A stretch of 64,000 nt of DNA from NCBI GenBank assembly GCA_951406725.2, contig OX597817.1, positions 143,902,001-143,966,000 of the forward strand, read 5' to 3'. Positions 5,940 through 61,343 of the stretch are shown here, in pieces (the stretch's first letter is position 1; each line of letters starts with the position of its first letter). Source of the DNA: Octopus vulgaris. Lineage: Eukaryota. The notes beneath the pieces were generated by a model. The model saw only the letters and a list, made by a program, of their open reading frames with translations, did not search any database and had not been told where the DNA came from. The position numbers and the translations under genes are program-made.

Positions 5940-6260
5940 AAGGCCAATGACAGTACCTCCTGATTGGCACCCATGCTGGTGGCATGTAAAAAGTACCATT
6001 CGAGTGTGGTTGATGCCAGTGCCGCCTGACTGGTCACATGCCAGTGGCATGTTAAAAGCACCATTTGAGCATGATCATTGCCAGTTCCACCTGACTGGCT
6101 CCTGTGATGGTGGCACATAAAAAGCACCATTCGAGCATGACCATTGCCAGTTCCACCTGACTGGTCCTGTGCTGGTGGTATGTAAAAAGCACCATTCGAG
6201 CATGGTCGATGCCAGTGTCAGCTGACTGCTCCTGTGCCAGTGGAACACAAAAAGCACCTG
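5940..6260 (+). repeat. ~65-bp tandem repeat from the RTE 3' UTR (5 units)
   Basis: AAAAG(C/T)ACC at ~5989, 6054, 6120, 6186, 6249. Confidence 0.8.
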
Positions 6261-7187: not shown

Positions 7188-7537
7188 AACAACTTATAAA
7201 TAAGGGAAAAGAAAGAAATTCCTGTGCCAAATATGCTGAGAAATAGACTTTAAATCATCAATAACCACATATAATTCATCACTAAAAGCAGTAATAACAG
7301 AATCATCATCATCGTTTAGCGTCCGCTTTCCATGCTTTCTGTCAGCTTGTTTCGAGATGCATGCTTTTAGTGATGATTTATTGACGATTTAAAGTGTATT
7401 TCTCAGCATATTTGGCATAGGAATTTTTTTCCTTTTGCCCTTATTTATAAAGTTGTTTATAATTTTCTCCTTAAAAAGTATTTTTTAAATATGCTGGCCA
7501 CTGATAAAATTTTTTTGAAAATTTTATCCTATATTAG
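7188..7537 (+). mobile_element. Fold-back element with 17-bp TSD
   Basis: Inverted arms ~7187-7290 / 7362-7459; TSD ATGTATATTTATGTGTA at 7171-7187 and 7538-7554; terminal motif ATATGCTGGCCACTG resembles ATATGCTAAGCCACTG at ~822-837. Confidence 0.75.
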
Positions 7538-8097
7538 ATGTATATTTATGTGTAGTTTATTTAGGGGGAAAGCAGAGCCATGGCCCCTTCTCAAAGCATG
7601 AGGTTTTTTGGGGGGAGCGAGGGAGGGAGAAATGTATCCTCAAACTAAATCTGGCCTGTATACTTACAAGAGGAAACCCCTAGTTCCACTAAAGGCAACA
7701 AGGAGGGTGGAGGGAACAGATTTAAACAGGACTATTATCCTATATGTCCAAGAGGACAGCAAGCTGACAGATTTATTAGCACGCTGAGTGAAATGCCTAG
7801 TGGTATTTCATCTGCTGTTATGTTCTGAGTTCAAATTCCACCACAGTCGACTTTGCCTTTCATCCTTTCGGGGTTGATTGAATAAGTACCAGTTACTTTG
7901 GGGTCGATGTAATCAACTTAATCCTTTTGTTTGTCTCCTCTATGTCTAGCCCCCTGTGGGCAATAAAGAAATAAATATGTCTTTCCCTTTCATACAAGAG
8001 TAAGATATGATATGAGGATTATTTGGCTGCTACTTTTAGAAAATCAAACGATTCCATGAAAGCTTTTTGTTCTCCTTTTGGAGTTGACACCCACTAA

Positions 8098-16039: not shown

Positions 16040-16740
16040 TTAATGTTTTTCTTATATTTATAGAATCACATGGTTTCATATTTATAAATCATACAATGTT
16101 CCTAACAACTCAAAGCTCATTAGTAAGGTAAATGAAGTGAAATAGCACCACCTGTTAATTGAGACTAAGTCACAGAACCAGTAAGTTGAGAAATTACATC
16201 AATGAATAATGGGTTCTTTTTTTTAATTCACCTACAATACACAATTTCTCTTGTATGTTTTGATGCTTCCTTCATTAAATATATTAACATTAACTGAAGG
16301 TATTGAGCTTTTGCATACCAGGCGAAATGCATAGTGGTATTCCGTCTGTCTTCATGTTCTGAGTTCAAATCCTGCCAGGGTTGACTTTGTCTTTCATCCT
16401 TTCAGGGCCAAAAAAAAAAAAGTAAGTACCAGTTAAACACTGGGGTTGATTTAATCGATTTATCCCCTGACCCAAACTTGCTGGCCTTGTGGCAAAATTT
16501 GAAACTAACACTAACTTAAATGATATATTCAGAGTAAAGTCGTCATCTTGGTTGTTGCGGTCACAACAATTCTGGTTTTATACCTTCCACTCTTCTTTGA
16601 TGCTTTTTGTATTCAGTAACATTTTTGGTGATCTAAACTAAACCCTTCAGGATGATCTCCTGCCAGTTGTTCTCTTTGTGATGTCACATATTTGTTCTGC
16701 TTGAAACAGAAATGGTACTAAATTAAAATAGTCATCTATC

Positions 16741-17273
16741 TGATAATAGAAATATTACATTTCTAAATCTCGCAGGGAGATTTATGCATTGCAGCACAAT
16801 AAAGTGATAGCATGCTGTCAACTTATGTGGCAGTCCCATAAAAGGGAAGAATGCTACTGTTATTTAGCCCTAGGAACACCGTTTCCTGTTGGACTTGACA
16901 CATTTTCTGTGTCCTTATGTTTTCAAAGTGGAGATAAGCACCTCCACCCAGCAAAGCCAGCACCCAGAGACTAGTTTCAGAGTCATTGCTCATCATCAGC
17001 CTGGAGTAGCATGGCTTTCTAGCTGTCGATACCTATCAGCCTTTGAAAACATATATATTTCAAGTGAAATACATTCACTGATTTTTGAAAATAGAAATAA
17101 TATATTTCTAAATCTCTTAGAGAGATTTATGCAGTAGCAGCATGATTAAGTGATAGCATGTTGTCAACTTAATGTGACAGTCCCATGAACGGGAAGAATG
17201 CTACAGTTATTTAGTCCTAGGAAACACTGTTTCCTGTTGGACTCAACAAATTTCCTGTGTCCTTATGTTTTCA
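16741..17273 (-). mobile_element. Retrozyme-like tandem element (345-bp period, ~1.5 units)
   Basis: 16741-16925 repeated at 17086-17273; hammerhead motif in the intervening part; homologous to 38942-39858. Confidence 0.75.
16964..17004 (-). ncRNA. Minimal type I hammerhead ribozyme motif
   Basis: CCAGG-CUGAUGA-U-GAG(CAAUGA)CUC-U-GAAA-CUAG-UC^-UCUGG: intact core, palindromic stem III, GUC site, stem I pairing. Confidence 0.8.
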
Positions 17274-17366
17274 TACTAAATGTATATACATTGTTAGGAG
17301 ACAGTAATATTAACGGTCAATGGTGATGCTATGAAAACAAAACTACAAATACATAACAATTCAGCA

Positions 17367-24365: not shown

Positions 24366-26299
24366 CTTCTTCTTCTTCAGATAAATATTCAATACATATT
24401 GCATGGAAAGGAAACAGACAAGTTCAACCTGTCAAATATCTCCTGAGGATTTGCAGAAATAAATTTATTTCAGAGAAGATATTTTATATTTTATTGAACT
24501 CAGGCTTCCATAAATTTTATCCTTAAAACATAAAAAAAAAAAAATAATAAAAAAAAAAAACATAACAAAAACCTTATCGTCTTCTCTGAAGTGCTTTTTC
24601 AATGTTAAAATGAAATATTTCTGTTTTCTGTAGCTTTCATTCCCCCATCCACCCCACTCTTCATCTCCAGCTTCCATACATCCATATAACCTCTACCTAC
24701 CCGTAACCCTGGTTCTTCTGCACCTTCCCTTCCTTTCGCTTCCAATCCCCTTGTACTTATGACCTAATTGGTTTCAAATTTTGGTGCAAGGCCAGCAATT
24801 TCGGGGGAGAGGAGGAGGAGGATAACTTTATTACATCGTCCCCAGTGCGTAACTGGTACTTAATTTATTGACCCCGAAAGGATGAAAGGCAAAGTTGACC
24901 TCGGCAGAATTTGAACTCAGAACTAATTTTTGAAGTACGACTTCAATTGCTAACGATTCTGCCAGCTCACTGCCTTAATAATAATAATAATCATCATCAT
25001 CATCGTTTAATGTCCGCTTTCCATGCTAGCATGGGTTGGACGATTTGACTGAGGACTGGCAAGCCAGATGGCTGCACCAGCCTCCAATCTGATCTGGCAG
25101 AGTTTCTACAGCTGGATGCCCTTCCTAACGCCAACCACTCCAAGAGTGTAGTGGGTGCTTTTACGTGCCACCAGTACAAGGGTCAGTCAGGCGGTACTGG
25201 CAATGGCCACACTCAAATGGTGCTTTTTAAGTGCCACCTGCACAGGAGCCAGTCCAGTGGCACTGGCAATGACCTCGCTCGAATAATTCTTTCTATTATA
25301 GGCACAAGGCCTGAAATTCTGTGGGAGGTGGGGCAGTCGATTAGAATGACCCCAGTACACAACTGGTACTTAATTTATTGACTCCAAAAGAAAGAAAAGC
25401 AAAGTTGACCTCGGTGGAATTTGAACTCAAAACGTAAAGACAGATGAAATGCCATTAAGCATTTTTCCCGGTGTGCTAACAATTCTGCCAGCTCGCTGCC
25501 TTACTTACGAACCTAGTTCATGAAGGACATTTTTACAGGACGAGAAAAAAGAGGAAAAGCGTTAAAAGTATAACAGATCAAATTATCAAGAATACCACCC
25601 CACCCTCCATAACTACCTCACCAAGGAAACAAAGTAAAATAGGTGGGGGAGTTAAACGGCATAAAATGGGGGTGGAGGGAGTAGTGAGTTGTATACCCCA
25701 GAACAAGTGGCATGTTCAGCGGTACCTCACAGACATGATCGCAAAGGCATTGCCACAGAGAATGGCCAGCCACTTACTGCAATAGCCACCCCGCCTTGCA
25801 GGGCTCATTTTGCCAGTTTTGTGGAGGAAATCAGTGGGGTTTCACACATGTCTCATCACCACTATTTGTATCTCTACTCCACTCCACTCCAATCCTGCTT
25901 CAGTCTCCTTTTTAAAATCAGAGTAGCAATGTGGATCCTCAAAGGCAAGAAACCCTTTCTACTCTGGCTGCTTCTCTTCTACTTTCACCATATTGTCTCC
26001 TGCCATAAAGCTGCCATTCTCAAGGTTCGTAGATTTGTAAACTGTATGGCAGCAATCTCATTAATGTTAGGGGCACAAAAACAGCACCTTCTATGAGCTG
26101 GAAAGTGGTTGGTGTTAGGAAGGACTTCAAGTTGTAGAAGTGATGCCAAAGTAGACAATAGAGCACAATGCAGCCCCTGACCCCACTGGACGCTGTCAAA
26201 CTGGTCAACCCATGCCAGCAAGGAACATGGAACATCAAGTGATGATGATGAGCTTTCATGTAACTGTCAGTTTATATATGCATATATATCTACATCATC

Positions 26300-27124
26300 A
26301 TCGGGCAGCACTACCACCTCCAGGCACTCAATGTAGGCCTCTGTGTTGAGTCTGAGGCCATGTGGGAAGATGACTGGAAGCATAATGTCGCCGACACTCC
26401 AAACACCATGATGTTGACTGGATGTTTGATTTTTTATCACTCTCAGTACATATTTTGGGGACATGGCAAGCCAACGGTTGTTCTGTGTTTTCACCATCTG
26501 ATCCTGACAGAAACTTTTCTCATCTGAGAAAAACCAAAGCATGATTGGTTGGAGGGGATGCTTGAGTTTGTTCAAAAGCTTCATAGTGCCGTCTGTCCTC
26601 GTCCTTGATGGCTTGGGATAAAAATTGGCCCTTTCTCATCTTGTATGAGGAATACCAAATGTCTTCATGCACTACCTGCCTTATGAGAAACTCAGACGCT
26701 CCCATGTCCCTGATGCTGGACCTGATTGACTTGGGGGGATTGTTGTCAATCATGGCCTGACTCTCACCAACAAATTCAAAAATTCTTTTCTTACCAGAAC
26801 GATCAGAGTGAGTTTCCCAAGCTGCCATGCCTTCATAATCACCATTAGACTCATCCAACTCTTTCCGAATCCTCTGCACTGTCCTCACATTGACACCCAA
26901 ACACTCCGAAATGTTCATATTGGAGCTTCTGGTGTGAATACCAAGCAGTACAGCATGTCATTTCCAAATTTCTGGCAGAGTGAATTGCATCACGGTGCTG
27001 TTTTTCTCACAGATGGTGCCCAACTGACCCTACTATACTGCATAGTTGACAAAATCAAAAACAAACAATGCACATGTGCGAAATTAAAAATATAAAATGG
27101 TGACAATTTACCCATTGCACTCTG
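26300..27124 (-). mobile_element. Tc1/mariner (maT/DD37D-like) transposase pseudogene, 5' part with TIR remnant
   Basis: HTH ISECLGVNVRTVQRIRKEL, KSIRSSIRDMGASEFLIRQVVHED, first catalytic motif WFFSDEKSF, LRLNTEAYIECLEVVVLP; frameshifted and truncated; CAGAGTGC end at 27124. Confidence 0.85.
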
Positions 27125-31624: not shown

Positions 31625-32395
31625 TTATCCTTTACTTCCTTTGGTCATTAGACCGTGGCCATGCTGGAGTATTGTCTTGAAGAATTTTAATCAAATGAAT
31701 CAACTCCAGTACTTATTCTATTGGTTTGTTTTGTTGAACTGCTAAGTTACAGGGATGTAAACACACCAACACCAGTTGTCAGGTGGTGGTAGGAGACAAA
31801 CATAAAGACAAACACACACATATACAATGGGCTTCTTTCAGTTTCCATCGACCAAATCCACTCAGAAGGCTTTGGTTAGCCTGAGGCAATAGAAAACACT
31901 CATCCAAAGTATCACGCATTGTAACTGAACCCAGAACCAAGTGGTTGGGAAGTAAGCTTCTTATTTCTTTACTACCCACAAGGGGCTAAACATAGAGAGG
32001 ACAAACAAGGACAAAGGGATTAAGTCGATTACATTGACCCCAGTGCGTAACTGGTACTTAATTTATTGACCCCAAAAGGATGAAAGGCAAAGTCTACCTT
32101 GGCGGAATTTGAACTCAGAACTTAATAGCAGACGAAATACCTATTTCTTTACTACCCACAAGGGGCTAAACACAGAGGGGACAAACAAGGACAGACACAC
32201 GGATTAAGTTGATTACATCAATCCCAGTGCGTAACTGGTATTTATCTAATCGACCCCGAAAAGATGAAAGGCAAAGTCTACTTTGGTGGAATTTGAACTC
32301 AGAACGTAACGGCAGACAAAATATCGATAAGCATTTCACCTGGCATGCTAACATTTCTGCCAGCTTGCCGCCTTCTTACCACACAGCCATGCCTG
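31625..32395 (-). mobile_element. SINE A interrupted by a dimeric SINE B (31961-32372)
   Basis: Two B units joined at GAAATACC|TATTTC; CTTCTTA duplicated at the outer junctions. Confidence 0.8.
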
Positions 32396-35362: not shown

Positions 35363-36052
35363 AACAACAATTTCTCATAGACAAAGGGCAAGGGCTAGAA
35401 ACACTAAATTCTTCAATCCTCACAGAATCTCAACTCACCAAACTCACTTATTCTTATGTAGAATATTCTTCAGTTTGACATTCTTATGCAAAGAGAAAAT
35501 TCCAGTAAGAGATGTAGAAAGACAGTCCTATATAAAACCCTGCTAACAACAGTAATTTTAATCAATACGACGGTTGAAAACCTAACAAAAGAGAAGACTG
35601 AATGAAATAAACGAGGCAAAATGAAACATATCTAATCACAAAGACAGCTGAATTAATAAACGGCTGCCAAGGCCGCCATGTTCTATTGGAATTCTTCAGA
35701 CATATTTGGTTTTCCATTCCAATATGATTAAATAACTATTATGGACATTATAAGAACATAAAAAGAAACATTTTTTTTTTTCTATCTCATCTTTTTTATA
35801 CTTGAATTTTTTTTAACAGCTATTTTCCATGTTAGCATGCATGGAACGTTTTCCTTATCAGCTTTAGACATTTTTATTTTTATGTAACTGAAACAAGTCG
35901 CTTTATAAAGTCTGTACACACACTTTCCTGTTGAATGCTTCTTTATGAATTCAGTGACAGCACAAGCTGTTTTCTAGTTTTGAAAGAGCTCAGCAAAATG
36001 GTTTCAGCAAGACTTGAATTTAAACAACATAGAGAACAGGTCAGAACTTTAA

Positions 36053-36273
36053 CCCTTTAGTGTTCGCATTATTCTGCCAAAATTAATCCTTTTTTATCCA
36101 CATTGGTTTGAACTAATCAGACATTATCTTGGAGCTATGAGATTTTGATGAGGTAGCTGTTAATTTTTAAAACGATATTGTAGGGTTGGTGTGAGAGACC
36201 AGATCTGGCCAGTTTGAACATAAAACAGGCAGAATACTTTCGGCCGGATATGGCCGGTTTAAATGCTAAAGGG
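36053..36273. mobile_element. piggyBac-like MITE (TTAA TSD)
   Basis: TTAA|CCCTTTAG ... CTAAAGGG|TTAA; related copy at 56616-57254. Confidence 0.85.
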
Positions 36274-36317
36274 TTAAACCACACAACCTTGAAACGCTAG
36301 ATATGGAAACATTTGCT

Positions 36318-37740: not shown

Positions 37741-38140
37741 GAAGCCTAACACTCAAAAGGAAGGCCCAGCGCTCGAAAGAAAGGCCCAGCACTTGAAAGG
37801 AAGGCCCAGCACTTGAAAGGAAGGCCCAGCGTTCGAAAGGAAGCCCTGGCACTTGAAAGGAAGGCCCAGCGCTCGAAAGGAAGGCCCAGCGATCGAAAGG
37901 AAGGCCCAGCATTCGAAAGGAAGCCCTGGCACTTGAAAGGAAGGCCCAGCGCTCGAAAGGAAGGCCCAGCGCTCGAAAGGAAGCCCTGGCACTTGAAAGG
38001 AAGGCCCATCGCTCGAAAGGAAGGCCCAGCGCTCGAAAGGAAAGCCCAGCCCTCAAAAGAAAGGCCCAGCGCTCGAAAGGAAGGCCCAGCGCTCGAAAGG
38101 AAGGCCCAGCACCCGAAAGGAAGGCCCAATGCTCAAAAGG
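37741..38140. repeat. 20-bp minisatellite x20 (AAGGCCCAGCGCTCGAAAGG)
   Basis: Exact 20-nt period; abuts the 5'-truncation point of a minus-strand RTE copy (~37443-37760). Confidence 0.95.
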
Positions 38141-38599
38141 AAACTTCAAAACACTCTGGCGTTTTGACCTTGTTGAAGCTACTCCACTGGACTGTGCTCA
38201 ACTGGTACTTATTTTATTGACCCCAAAAGGATGAAAGACAAAGTCGGCCTTGGCAGAACTTGAACTCAGAACATAAAGGTAAACAAAATGCTGCCAAGTA
38301 TTTTGTGCACCGTGCTAACGATTTTACCAGCTCACTGCCTTGTTAACCACCTTAATAATCCTTTCTACTATAAGCACAAGGCTTGAAATTTGGGGAAGGG
38401 GGACAAGTCAATTACATCAACCCCAGTGCATAACTGGTACTTAATTTATCGACCTTGAAAGGATGAAAGGCAAAGTTGACGTTAGTGGAATTTGAACTCA
38501 GAACGTAAAGACAGATGAAATGCTGCCAAGCTTTTTGCTCAGCTTGCTAACGACTCTGCCAGCTCATCACCTTGATAATGACATGGTGATAATTGAAAC

Positions 38600-38918
38600 A
38601 AGGAATGTGGCATAGTGGCTAGGGATATTCAGCTTATGATCAAAAGGTAGTGAATTCAATTCCTGGCAGTGTACAGTGCACCTGAGCAAGACACTTTATT
38701 TTTCACGTTGCTCCAGTCAACCCTGCTGACAAAAATGAGTTGTACCTGTAATTCTAGGGGGCAGCCTTGTCACATTCTGTGTCATACTGACTCTCCCTCA
38801 GAGTTACATTAAAGGTATGAATGTCCGGGAAGTGCTCACCCACTTGCACATTAATTTCACAAGTGGGCTATTTCATTTATCGGATCAACTCATCATTGCA
38901 ACTGACGGAGTGCCAATT
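38600..38918 (+). mobile_element. SINE with family F tail, 11-bp TSD
   Basis: TSD ATAATTGAAAC at 38589-38599 and 38919-38929; tRNA-like head; tail ...ACTGACGGAGTGCCA. Confidence 0.8.
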
Positions 38919-38941
38919 ATAATTGAAACCAAGGCAGTGTA

Positions 38942-39858
38942 GAAAATTACTATTTGTAAATCTCACGAGAGATATTCAGCAACAGTACTTTGTAGTAAAG
39001 ATTATTTGCCAACATAACATGGCAGTCCTGGTTTAGGACGAATGTTGCTGTAATTTAGCCCCAGGAGACATCATCTCCAAAAAATTATTCTATGCTGATG
39101 AAGAGAAATAACCCAGAAATTGTTGGGAATCTAGATTCTCTTGTTTGAAAATATAAGGACACAGATCGTGTTGTATAGCCATCTGGAGAGGATGTCTCCA
39201 GGGGCTAAATTACAGCAACATTCGTCCTAAACCAGGACTGCCAAGTTATGTTGGCAAATAATCTTTACTCCAAAGTACTGTTGCTGAATATCTCTCATTG
39301 TAAGATTTAACAAAATGGTAATTTTCTAATTTATAGATCAGTGACTAGTTGTCACTTTGAAAACTATATATTTCGAATGGGAATTTGGCAGTGCCACCTC
39401 TAGGCAAACAATTATTCTGTGCTGGTGAAGAGAAATAACCCAGAAATCATGATACACAGATATTGTTTTGAGCTGAGTGGGGGTGCTAGATTCCCTTGTT
39501 CGAAAATATAAGGACACAGATCATGTTGTATAGCCAGCTGGAGATGATGTATGTCTCCTGGGGCTAAATTACAGCAACATTTGTCTTAACCCTTTCATTA
39601 GTGTATTTATTTTGAGATGCTCTGTGTTTCTTTCAATTATTTTAAATATAACAAAGAATTAGGTAAAATAACTTAGTTATCATTCAGCTCGTGTTAGGAA
39701 CATAAATTGCGACTAAGGTTTGGTGGAAGATTTTAATTCAGAACTTAAGAAAACAAGACATTTGTACAACACAGCCAGAGCCGGTTTCAGCTGGGTTGGT
39801 AACGAAAGGGTTAAACCAGGACTGCCATGTTATGTTGGCAAATAATCTTTACTACAAT
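38942..39858 (+). mobile_element. Retrozyme/Penelope-type insertion: inverted arm plus tandem hammerhead-bearing units, 9-bp TSD
   Basis: Inverted arm 38940-39079 pairs with 39184-39328; direct units start ~39083 and ~39410; cores CTGATGA (39095) and CTGGTGA (39422); TSD GGCAGTGTA at 38933-38941 and 39859-39867. Confidence 0.8.
39590..39810. mobile_element. piggyBac-like MITE nested in the retrozyme-like unit
   Basis: TTAA|CCCTTTCATTA ... TAACGAAAGGG|TTAA; host sequence is colinear across the insert; partial copy at 61008-61180. Confidence 0.85.
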
Positions 39859-40278
39859 GGCAGTGTATTTCAACAGAAAACTGAAAGGGTTTAGACTTTT
39901 CTCAGTTGTGATAAATCCTACCATAAACGTGTTCAATTATATTTTCTATGATTCCTCACAGATAAATACAGAAACAGGTTTGACATTTATCAATAAATCT
40001 GTGAGAAGTTTCCATTTCATCGTTTGATTTGATCAATGTAGCATTGCAGTCCCAATCAACAGCATTGTTATTCTCTGTGAAACTGGAACCACATGGGAAT
40101 GGTCAATTATGGAATTTAATCACTGTACAAACATTTGTCAAAAGCAATTGCAAATAGGATTATATAACAACACCTTGGCGTTAAGAAAAACATCTGAACG
40201 TCTACAAGACATAAATCAGAAACACCCATGTCTATAATAAGGAAATTGGATATATATACGCGAAAAAGTGTGTATATA

Positions 40279-53514: not shown

Positions 53515-53890
53515 AAATAAATTATTGGATTGTGATTTGTATCTCTATTCAATTTGTTTGTAATTTGCATTACACCCATATTTATGAGGTATTCAACTGA
53601 AGTACAGGTGAAGTGGATGTTTTACACACCCCTTTGAAGGAATTCCTTTCCTTAGTTTATCACCTTATATATACTTTATTATTATTATTATTAAAGCTGC
53701 AAAAACATCACAAAAAATTGCTACTCAGAGTTTCACGTTGCCATTCGGACAGTTTAGATTGCTTTTACTACTACTACTCCATCAATCAATCTAAACTGTC
53801 TGATAAACAGGAGTGTGAAACTCTGAGTAGCAGTTATTTTGGTTCGTGGGAAATATGAGTATAATACAAATTACAAACAAATTAAATTAA
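53515..53890. mobile_element. Fold-back element with degenerate hammerhead motifs in both arms
   Basis: Inner arms 53719-53761 / 53787-53832, outer arms 53551-53583 / 53851-53883; AACUGU-CUGAUAA-ACA(GGAG)UGU-GAAA-CUCUGAG-UA^-GCAGUU at 53794-53835. Confidence 0.7.
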
Positions 53891-54030
53891 ACGATGATGA
53901 TGATGATGATGAATTGATCCCGGTACTTGGTTTTTAAGACTGGTACTTGTTCTATTGGTTTCTTTTTGCCAAACTGCTAAGCAACTGGGGTATAAACAAA
54001 CCAACACCAGTTATCAAGCAGTGTTGGGAG

Positions 54031-54221
54031 TGCGGATCCGTGGAATAAGCTGCCAGACGAGATGGTGAAGATGCCGACGACCGCATGGTTCAAGGTCTCC
54101 CTTGACCTCAAGTGGCCTGAACTCTTTACATGAACACCACCCTGTACATAACTCCATGTCCCCCTACATGGCCTTGCTTTTTGCTTTTTGAGCCAAAAAA
54201 TTAACTAACTAACTAACTAAC
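54031..54221 (+). mobile_element. CR1-type LINE 3' end nested in an old SINE A
   Basis: ADPWNKLPDEMVKMPTTAWFKVSLD (WNxLP...FK..LD motif), short UTR, (CTAA)n tail. Confidence 0.8.
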
Positions 54222-55620: not shown

Positions 55621-56615
55621 AAGACACGTGGTTAGGGATATTTGGTTTATGATCATAAGGTCATGAGTTCGATTCCTGGCAGTGCACTTTGTGCTTGAGC
55701 AAAACACTTTATTTTTCACATTGCTCCAGTCCACTCAGCTGGGAAAAATGAGTTGTACCTCTAATTACAAAGGGCCATCCTTGTAACATTCTGTGCCACA
55801 CTGGATCTTCCTGAGAACTAACTACATTAAGGGTGCACATGTCTGTGGAGTACTCAGCCACTTGCACATTAATTTCACAAGCAGGCTCTTTCATTGATCA
55901 GATCAACAGGAACAATTATCATAACCGGTGGAGTGTCAGTAAAGACAGTAGGGTGTGATTAGGGAGAGATTTAGTTGAGTTGCTGTTTGTCTGGAAATTT
56001 GAGCGATTTTTTTTTTGAGGGTTCCACATTGGTTGCTATTTCTAACAGCTTGAGGTACTTTAGTGTTATCCTTGTCACTGGCAATCCTTAACTAATATCA
56101 TAGCTTTTTATTACTAATTGAACAACTGTCCCCCCAACATCACTTGACAACCGATGCTGGTGTGTTTATGATCCCGTAACTTAGTGGTTCAGCAAAAGAG
56201 ATCAATAGAATAAGTACTAGGCTTACAAAGAATAAGTCCTAGGGTTGATGTGCTCGACTAAAGGCGGTGCTCCAGCATGGCTGCAGTCAAATGACTGAAA
56301 CAAATAAAATAAAAGGCTATCAGATGTTGCTACACATCGCTGGTCACAATGCGCTTCGCATTGTTTTAGCCTTCAAATGACGCCATCACGCTGGCTAAGC
56401 GAGCAGGCCAATGCTGGTGTGTTTATGTCCTCGTAACTTAGCAGTTCGACAAAAGATATTGATAGAGTAAGTACTAGGCTTACAAAGAATAAATCCTGGG
56501 ATCAATGTGCTCAACTAAAGGCGGTGCTCCAGGATGGCTGCAGGTCAAATGACTGAAACAAGCAAAAGAGAGTAAAACGAGAGTAACTGTCTTCAAAGAA
56601 GATAAACCACCTTAA

Positions 56616-60870: not shown

Positions 60871-61343
60871 TAAAAACTCTTCAAAGCAGTGTTCCAGTAT
60901 GGCCAGTCTAGAGACTGAGACAAGTAAGAGATAAAAGATCAACTTCAGTTTTTGTTTCATACTTTATTCCCTCTACCCGAGAGAGACAGAGATGAAAGGC
61001 CAAGAGGCCCTTTTATTACTGTATTTTTTTTTTAGATGCTCTGTGTTTCCTTCAATTAATTTTAAATATCAGAAAGAATTTAGTAAAATAACTTGGCTAT
61101 CATTCAGCTAGTGTTAGGAACATAAATTGTGACTAAGATTTGGTGGAAGATTTTAATTCAAAACTTATGAAAACAAGACAATTTTTGTGATTTTGTTATA
61201 TGTTTTATAAAAATATATATATAATTTGTTATTTATGTTTTGGTCTATCATTGCTTGAATTGCATAATAGTGGTTTTATCTCTCATTTATATTTTATATA
61301 TTTATTTTGAAATTTGATTTAATATTAAATTGAATTTTTCCCC

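Follow-up and report, generated by a model that had tools for sequence, protein, structure and literature searches.

A decayed insertion, likely of a non-LTR retrozyme family, with a Penelope-type footprint in the genome of Octopus vulgaris

Introduction

Non-LTR retrozymes are non-coding tandem repeats with units of 150-450 bp and a GC content below 50%. They have been described in mussels, with units of 350-390 bp, in corals and in the axolotl (PMC7229834). Hammerhead ribozymes also occur in the repeats of Penelope-like elements (PMC4209133). Insertions of these elements combine two direct repeats and one inverted repeat, a target site duplication (TSD) of 8-10 bp and a one-sided tail, also when mobilisation occurs in trans (PMC3846280); the same layout is described in PMC8557442. 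In a preprint on vertebrate retrozymes these are treated as non-autonomous Penelope derivatives, and a Penelope origin is argued (bioRxiv 10.64898/2026.07.22.740005).

Neither octopus nor cephalopods are mentioned in the available main text of PMC7229834, the supplement of which may list cephalopods, and the 35 species named in the available text of the vertebrate preprint include no mollusc. A literature search judged by titles and abstract openings, with most subscription papers and repeat databases outside its scope, found no paper on cephalopod retrozymes.

The locus described here lies at positions 38933-39867 of a 64,000-nucleotide stretch of the Octopus vulgaris genome (contig OX597817.1, positions 143,902,001 to 143,966,000), which was analysed as a whole and is referred to as the window. 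It is likely a dead copy of an octopus family of non-LTR retrozymes, with a clear Penelope-type footprint. The class is already known from mussels, corals and salamanders; the host group is the part that would be new. The family would add a cephalopod to the animal hosts of retrozymes; its two subfamilies have about 69% identity, and the paired changes between them extend across the whole predicted circle. An ORF-free insertion with the full Penelope layout would lend small anatomical support to the idea, put forward in 2026, of retrozyme mobilisation by Penelope enzymes.

Like the retrozymes of PMC7229834, the locus has tandem non-coding units with a GC content below 50%, a type I hammerhead motif with a short palindromic stem III, a TSD longer than 4 bp and a predicted self-paired circle, and its unit length is within the range of the class. 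Unlike them, it belongs to a cephalopod, has an inverted 5' arm (the word "inverted" does not occur in the available text of that paper) and carries A-A at the base of stem II; cleavage and circles are predictions here.

With endonuclease-bearing Penelope-like elements (PMC3846280, PMC8557442, PMC4209133) the locus shares the partial tandem, the adjoining inverted and truncated copy, the one-sided extension, a TSD in the 8-10 bp range, a hammerhead in the repeat and deletions of the microhomology type. It differs from them by the absence of an ORF for reverse transcriptase and GIY-YIG, by a hammerhead of canonical and not minimal type, and by an extension of about 50 nt. The proposed origin and mobilisation and a unit length in their range are common to the locus and the vertebrate retrozymes (bioRxiv 10.64898/2026.07.22.740005), from which it differs in not having two consecutive units that each contain a complete hammerhead, the rule for an active copy.

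Results

Anatomy of the insertion

The insertion is bounded by a 9-bp TSD, GGCAGTGTA, present at 38933-38941 and again at 39859-39867. A 9-mer match at most 4 nt from two random window positions was obtained in 259 of 200,000 draws. The final 2 nt of the left TSD are shared with the outer end of an inverted, 5'-truncated partial unit, the arm (38940-39079, minus strand), which is the reverse complement of 39184-39328 in 133 of 140 ungapped columns and is complementary to 39812-39857 at 46 of 46 positions. The outer end of the arm overshoots the stop point of the right terminus by approximately 50 nt.

The arm is followed on the plus strand by unit 1 (39080-39406, 327 nt) and by unit 2 (39407-39858), which stops early, has a 4-nt duplication near 39547 and contains a later insertion, a miniature element (MITE) described below. 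With the MITE removed, unit 2 runs in register with unit 1 up to 39857 (178 of 195 columns). The heads of the units, which bear the hammerhead motifs, are spaced 327 bp apart, and the parts downstream 355 and 359 bp apart, because unit 1 is short by 28 nt, missing in the column alignment as two gaps (16 and 12 nt). The repeat has a period of 355-359 nt, a GC content of 0.38 and is non-coding: no ORF of at least 120 aa in the ORF list of the window overlaps the units, and an ORF combining reverse transcriptase and GIY-YIG was not found.

These data bear out an earlier note on the same DNA, in which a Penelope-style footprint without an ORF had been claimed from a 9-bp TSD, a 140-bp inverted arm and two direct units 327 bp apart, the first with a deletion of about 30 bp.

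Over the 89 nt common to all three pieces, the arm, unit 1 and unit 2 differ from one another by 4, 2 and 6 substitutions, and none is private to the arm, as a single insertion event followed by decay would give. Parts of three units are present in one insertion, and its termini, like those of the related element described below, lie off the predicted cut site, which points to reverse transcription either of an uncut multimer or of a circle in repeated rounds. Opposite-strand joints at 39079/39538 and 39067/39550 were considered as further inversions and rejected, since ordinary copies fit the arm in part and unit 2 in part.

Hammerhead motifs of the two units

Unit 1 holds a hammerhead remnant at 39095-39119 (plus strand), in which CUGAUGA and GAAA are whole; the cleavage site has been lost with the deletion, as have stem III and the 3' strand of stem I. 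In unit 2 a type I motif was found at 39416-39460 (plus strand), with a 6-bp stem I (39416-39421 with 39455-39460), the core at 39422-39428, a 14-nt stem II region (39429-39442), GAAA at 39443-39446, an 8-nt palindromic stem III (39446-39453) and a cut predicted after 39454. This motif has G instead of A at core position A6 (39425). Neither unit at 38933-39867 has an intact hammerhead.

Changes at A6 strongly reduce activity, as described for A6C; A6G is not named in the available text (PMC3088659). Owing to the deletion in unit 1 and to the G at A6 in unit 2, no cleavage is predicted for this copy, a presumably dead member of the family. The base of stem II (10.1-11.1; 39429/39442) is A-A in both units and U-U in the related copy at 16.7 kb. 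U-U at this place is a tolerated variant (PMC3088659; PMC7229834), found also in the axolotl HHR_Amex2 (PMC7229834).

The window was searched with a hammerhead descriptor allowing at most one core mismatch and demanding at least five stem I pairs and a palindromic stem III, the palindrome filter having been chosen after the data were seen. Exactly two sites were obtained, 39416-39460 and 16963-17005, and none of 60 shuffled sequences reached two; removal of the palindrome filter added three weak sites. No Rfam hammerhead match at the gathering score was found in the window, and 38900-39900 gave only six unrelated sub-threshold matches. None of the minimum-energy folds of the isolated motifs was shaped like a hammerhead (z from 1.34 to -1.96). 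A minimal hammerhead built on the first GAAA was discarded by eye, as its stem I would not pair.

A related copy in the same window

A copy of a related subfamily, comprising about 1.6 units of 345-348 nt, is located at 16724-17273 on the minus strand. The homology reported in the earlier note for 16741-17273 is confirmed on that strand, with the wider extent given here. BLAST alignments with the locus gave 76% over 85 nt (E 5e-9), 71% over 111 nt and 66% over 235 nt, and the overall alignment 218 identities in 317 columns, about 69%. An 8-bp duplication flanks this element (16716-16723 and 17274-17281), which had been overlooked before; no inverted arm was seen at 16724-17273.

The related copy has a type I hammerhead with a complete core (16963-17005, minus strand; core at 16999), consisting of a 6-bp stem I, a stem II of GAG/CUC over the U-U mismatch, a palindromic stem III and the triplet GUC.

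Abundance of the family and its letters in DNA runs

Four of 24 sequencing runs were compared at 80% likeness: three DNA contig sets (X1, X3 and X9) and one raw RNA run (X23). For X1, at least 100 contigs covered core positions and the depth exceeded that on the unique flank by a factor of thousands, which does not amount to a copy number. The family is high-copy. Many genomic copies and TSDs longer than 4 bp (9 and 8 bp at the two elements) are features by which retrozymes are recognised. Pattern scans of metagenome and viral contigs gave no match.

An A at 39425 accounted for 242042 of 243004 of the DNA depth in X1 (113 contigs), 115099 of 115827 in X3 (104 contigs) and 113273 of 114276 in X9 (113 contigs); A6 is intact in more than 99% of the family depth in all three DNA runs. 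Together with the related copy this gives a type I hammerhead with a complete core at the level of the family. The core given in the earlier note, merged from the two units, has this A6; each of the two units by itself is damaged.

At 39431 a G was found in 72% (X1), 57% (X3) and 73% (X9) of the DNA depth, so that stem II is mostly paired as GGG/CCC in the family. The poorly paired stem II noted previously came from merging the two units of this copy.

The right junction of the insertion was spanned by contigs with no differences in X1 and X3 and with 11 differences per 171 nt in X9. Its presence in three differently coded organisms indicates that the insertion is common to them and not recent. 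No empty site was found among the best 15 of 459 joints. Four contig pieces out of 24 listed start exactly at 39350, close to the counterpart of the 3' terminus of the 16.7-kb copy; this is either a preferred boundary of the family or an alignment break. One X3 contig (depth 20.5) crosses the deleted region of unit 1 (window 39121-39132) with five substitutions and one insertion; it is nearer the undeleted sequence and may represent another copy without the same cut-site region.

Paired changes between the subfamilies

All six pairs of stem I are retained across the two subfamilies, three of them through double and two through single changes. Stem III is palindromic in both, with a different palindrome in each. 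In stem II, GGG/CCC of the family corresponds to GAG/CUC in the relative, a compensatory change of the middle pair. The earlier note would have given up its hammerhead reading for a consensus with an unpaired stem II and no covariation; what was found is a consensus that mostly has G at 39431 and a relative with a compensatory A-U.

A structure predicted from this locus alone was mapped on the relative over 39143-39378, which provided 72 ungapped pairs. Unchanged pairs numbered 38; nine had changed on both sides and all nine pair (P 0.0014 with one null and 0.011 with another), four had changed on one side and pair, and 21 had changed on one side and are broken. When all changed-but-paired sites were pooled, they were not above chance (P 0.15). 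RNAalifold returned 15 doubly changed pairs out of 61, a figure that is descriptive because the fold was fitted to the two sequences.

The monomers folded as circles gave z values of -6.55 (39143-39497) and -5.63 (16926-17273), predicting stable self-pairing. The antisense strands likewise fold well (z -3.72 and -4.93). Among 20 control stretches, 18 were at z -2.1 or weaker and two were much stronger, 7201-7555 (z -13.0) and 53701-54055 (z -9.5), both probably long inverted repeats.

The proposed check of stems I-III for covariation, run here on the two subfamily copies, thus gave paired changes in stems I and II and a palindromic stem III in both. The claim of a compensatorily conserved fold is supported for stems I and II and, by the nine doubly changed pairs, for the wider monomer; the 21 one-sided breaks count against it. 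The covariation is real but thin, drawn as it is from two decayed sequences. A hairpin with paired changes in both subfamilies has the inner breakpoint of the arm (window 39184-39200) at its base.

Proposed origin of the insertion

With good probability, the locus is a non-LTR retrozyme in decay, one of many copies of a non-coding repeat of about 355 nt with a type I hammerhead motif, and it was likely inserted by a reverse transcriptase of Penelope type supplied in trans. A Penelope-style insertion of tandem hammerhead units with a conserved fold, as claimed earlier, remains the best reading. The partial tandem, the inverted truncated 5' copy, the one-sided extension and a TSD of 8-10 bp, which mark a Penelope-mobilised insertion, are all present. 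The Penelope link, likely as it is, rests on this layout and on the literature, no autonomous partner having been found in the window. The extension of about 50 nt, compared with 30-40 nt published for Penelope, counts against this reading.

Following the published cycle, family members with an intact ribozyme would be transcribed as multimers. These would then be cleaved after position 17, probably in dimers formed through the palindromic stem III; a point against this is that, of the dimers predicted for Xenopus, eight of nine failed to cleave (bioRxiv 10.64898/2026.07.22.740005). The monomers would be ligated into circles of about 350 nt, and target-primed reverse transcription would run round the circles more than a single time. 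Such copying would result in more than two units per insertion, the 9-bp TSD, termini off the cut site and a 5' piece that is inverted and extended on one side. Afterwards stem III would have been lost in unit 1, A6 changed to G in unit 2 and the TTAA-flanked MITE gained.

It is unlikely that an autonomous Penelope-like element contributed the units as its terminal repeats (pLTRs), the locus being a heavily 5'-truncated insertion and not an independent retrozyme. The layout and the TSD length are those of Penelope, and the Xenopus retrozymes are homologous to pLTRs (bioRxiv 10.64898/2026.07.22.740005). However, the motif is canonical, with six pairs in stem I and a stem III that is short, and not the minimal form of most animal Penelopes (PMC4209133). 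Furthermore, unit 1 abuts unit 2 without an ORF or other sequence between them, here and at 16.7 kb, and the entire monomer is predicted to close as a self-paired circle.

Still less probable, to the point of being very unlikely, is an arm produced by a non-Penelope reverse transcriptase through twin priming, the model proposed for LINEs, or by later inversion and duplication at the DNA level. Twin priming would suit the end of the arm beside the TSD, the absence of 78 nt of the unit between the arm end and the unit start, and junction microhomologies of 2-3 nt; the 3' end of the locus, however, has no poly(A) or simple-repeat tail. The arm and the units differ by just 2-6 substitutions per 89 nt and the arm has no private change, which argues against either route. 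A satellite-like or DNA-level repeat, with a hammerhead likeness due to chance or to an unselected relic, is extremely improbable: the missing Rfam match and the predicted nature of the ribozyme activity would agree with it, and against it stand the shuffle control (0 of 60) and a core retained in two subfamilies about 69% alike whose stems change in pairs.

Family reads in RNA and the letter at A6

Family reads were present in one RNA run, X23 (6,148 reads from about 6% of the run; unstranded library). In such reads, transcripts of tandem DNA mimic circle junctions. Five of the reads had a likeness of at least 99%, and 74% continued into other sequence. The unique right flank had an RNA depth of 0, and the deleted region of unit 1 one of about 0.8 in each direction; the locus 38933-39867 itself was therefore not seen as RNA. 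No pile of RNA ends was found at the cut site among those listed, the only listed pile being at 39131 (9 molecules).

An A at 39425 was present in 76 of 152 RNA reads, compared with 99.1% of the DNA depth in X9, the two being different samples with the same species label. The other letter in RNA is presumably the G of the window. At 10 of 12 tallied sites RNA and DNA agreed within 16 points. RNA and DNA also disagreed at 39244 (0.885 and 0.245), which may be due to reads split among three similar places and calls for caution in reading A6. Places of A>G or T>C type made up 94 of 194 in the RNA run, and in DNA the share was 35 of 102 (Fisher P 0.026); against the reverse transitions alone P was 0.10.

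Octopus repeats are subject to very high hyper-editing (PMC5625713), and editing has been floated as a source of heterogeneity in mussel retrozymes (PMC7229834). It is conceivable, if rather unlikely, that ADAR edits the catalytic A6 in retrozyme transcripts, which would thereby escape self-cleavage, and that the G found in the genome at 39425 goes back to an edited transcript that was reverse-transcribed. Editing of A6 is disfavoured by its 5' neighbour, since ADAR acts poorly next to a 5' G, and by the different samples behind RNA and DNA. The A6 shortfall would be explained at least equally well by one locus that is strongly expressed and carries a genomic change.

If the shortfall were due to editing, it would provide a natural example of ribozyme silencing by the host through RNA editing; no paper on natural editing of a ribozyme core was found in a search that had most subscription papers outside its scope. 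Survivor bias alone, through loss of cleaved RNAs, was rejected, since less than 1% of genomic non-A cannot become 50% of reads unless few loci dominate. Edited and reverse-transcribed RNA as a general source of the changes in this copy was not supported, with A to G in just 2 of 12 differences between the family and the window units.

The MITE and neighbouring repeats

The MITE inside unit 2 (39586-39814, plus strand, 229 bp), overlooked in the earlier note, is flanked by TTAA, ends in CCCTT/AAGGG and is a later insertion. The target in unit 2 is TTAA; the matching place in the arm and in unit 1 reads CTAA. Loose ends at 39586/39814 with unrelated flanks were found in 398/282 records of X1, 390/282 of X3 and 227/158 of X9, and hundreds of records in all four runs break off at the MITE edges. 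A partial copy at 61008-61183 is 89% alike over 176 nt.

We take the MITE to be of piggyBac type, which it resembles in having TTAA on both sides, CCC...GGG ends and many copies with unrelated flanks. It differs in that no transposase partner was identified, and it is a passenger outside the retrozyme proper. A TA-type (Tc1/mariner) MITE was disfavoured by loose ends at the outer edges of TTAA.

The tandem arrays at 31962-32323 (period 184 nt), 5945-6258 (65 nt) and 37752-38142 (20 nt) contained no match to the hammerhead descriptor. In the left flank, a dispersed and RNA-abundant repeat at 38615-38889, presumably SINE-like, shows 80% likeness to 55628-55907. Broken transposase-like frames, which we assume to be Tc1/mariner-like, occupy 26267-26957 on the minus strand; their part 26520-26957 has 55 homologues, the only named one being from Octopus vulgaris, with 76% identity over 53% of the query. 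The window is repeat-rich, and at 36049-36277 it holds a second TTAA-flanked element whose ends and 229-bp length match those of the MITE in unit 2, with a diverged interior.
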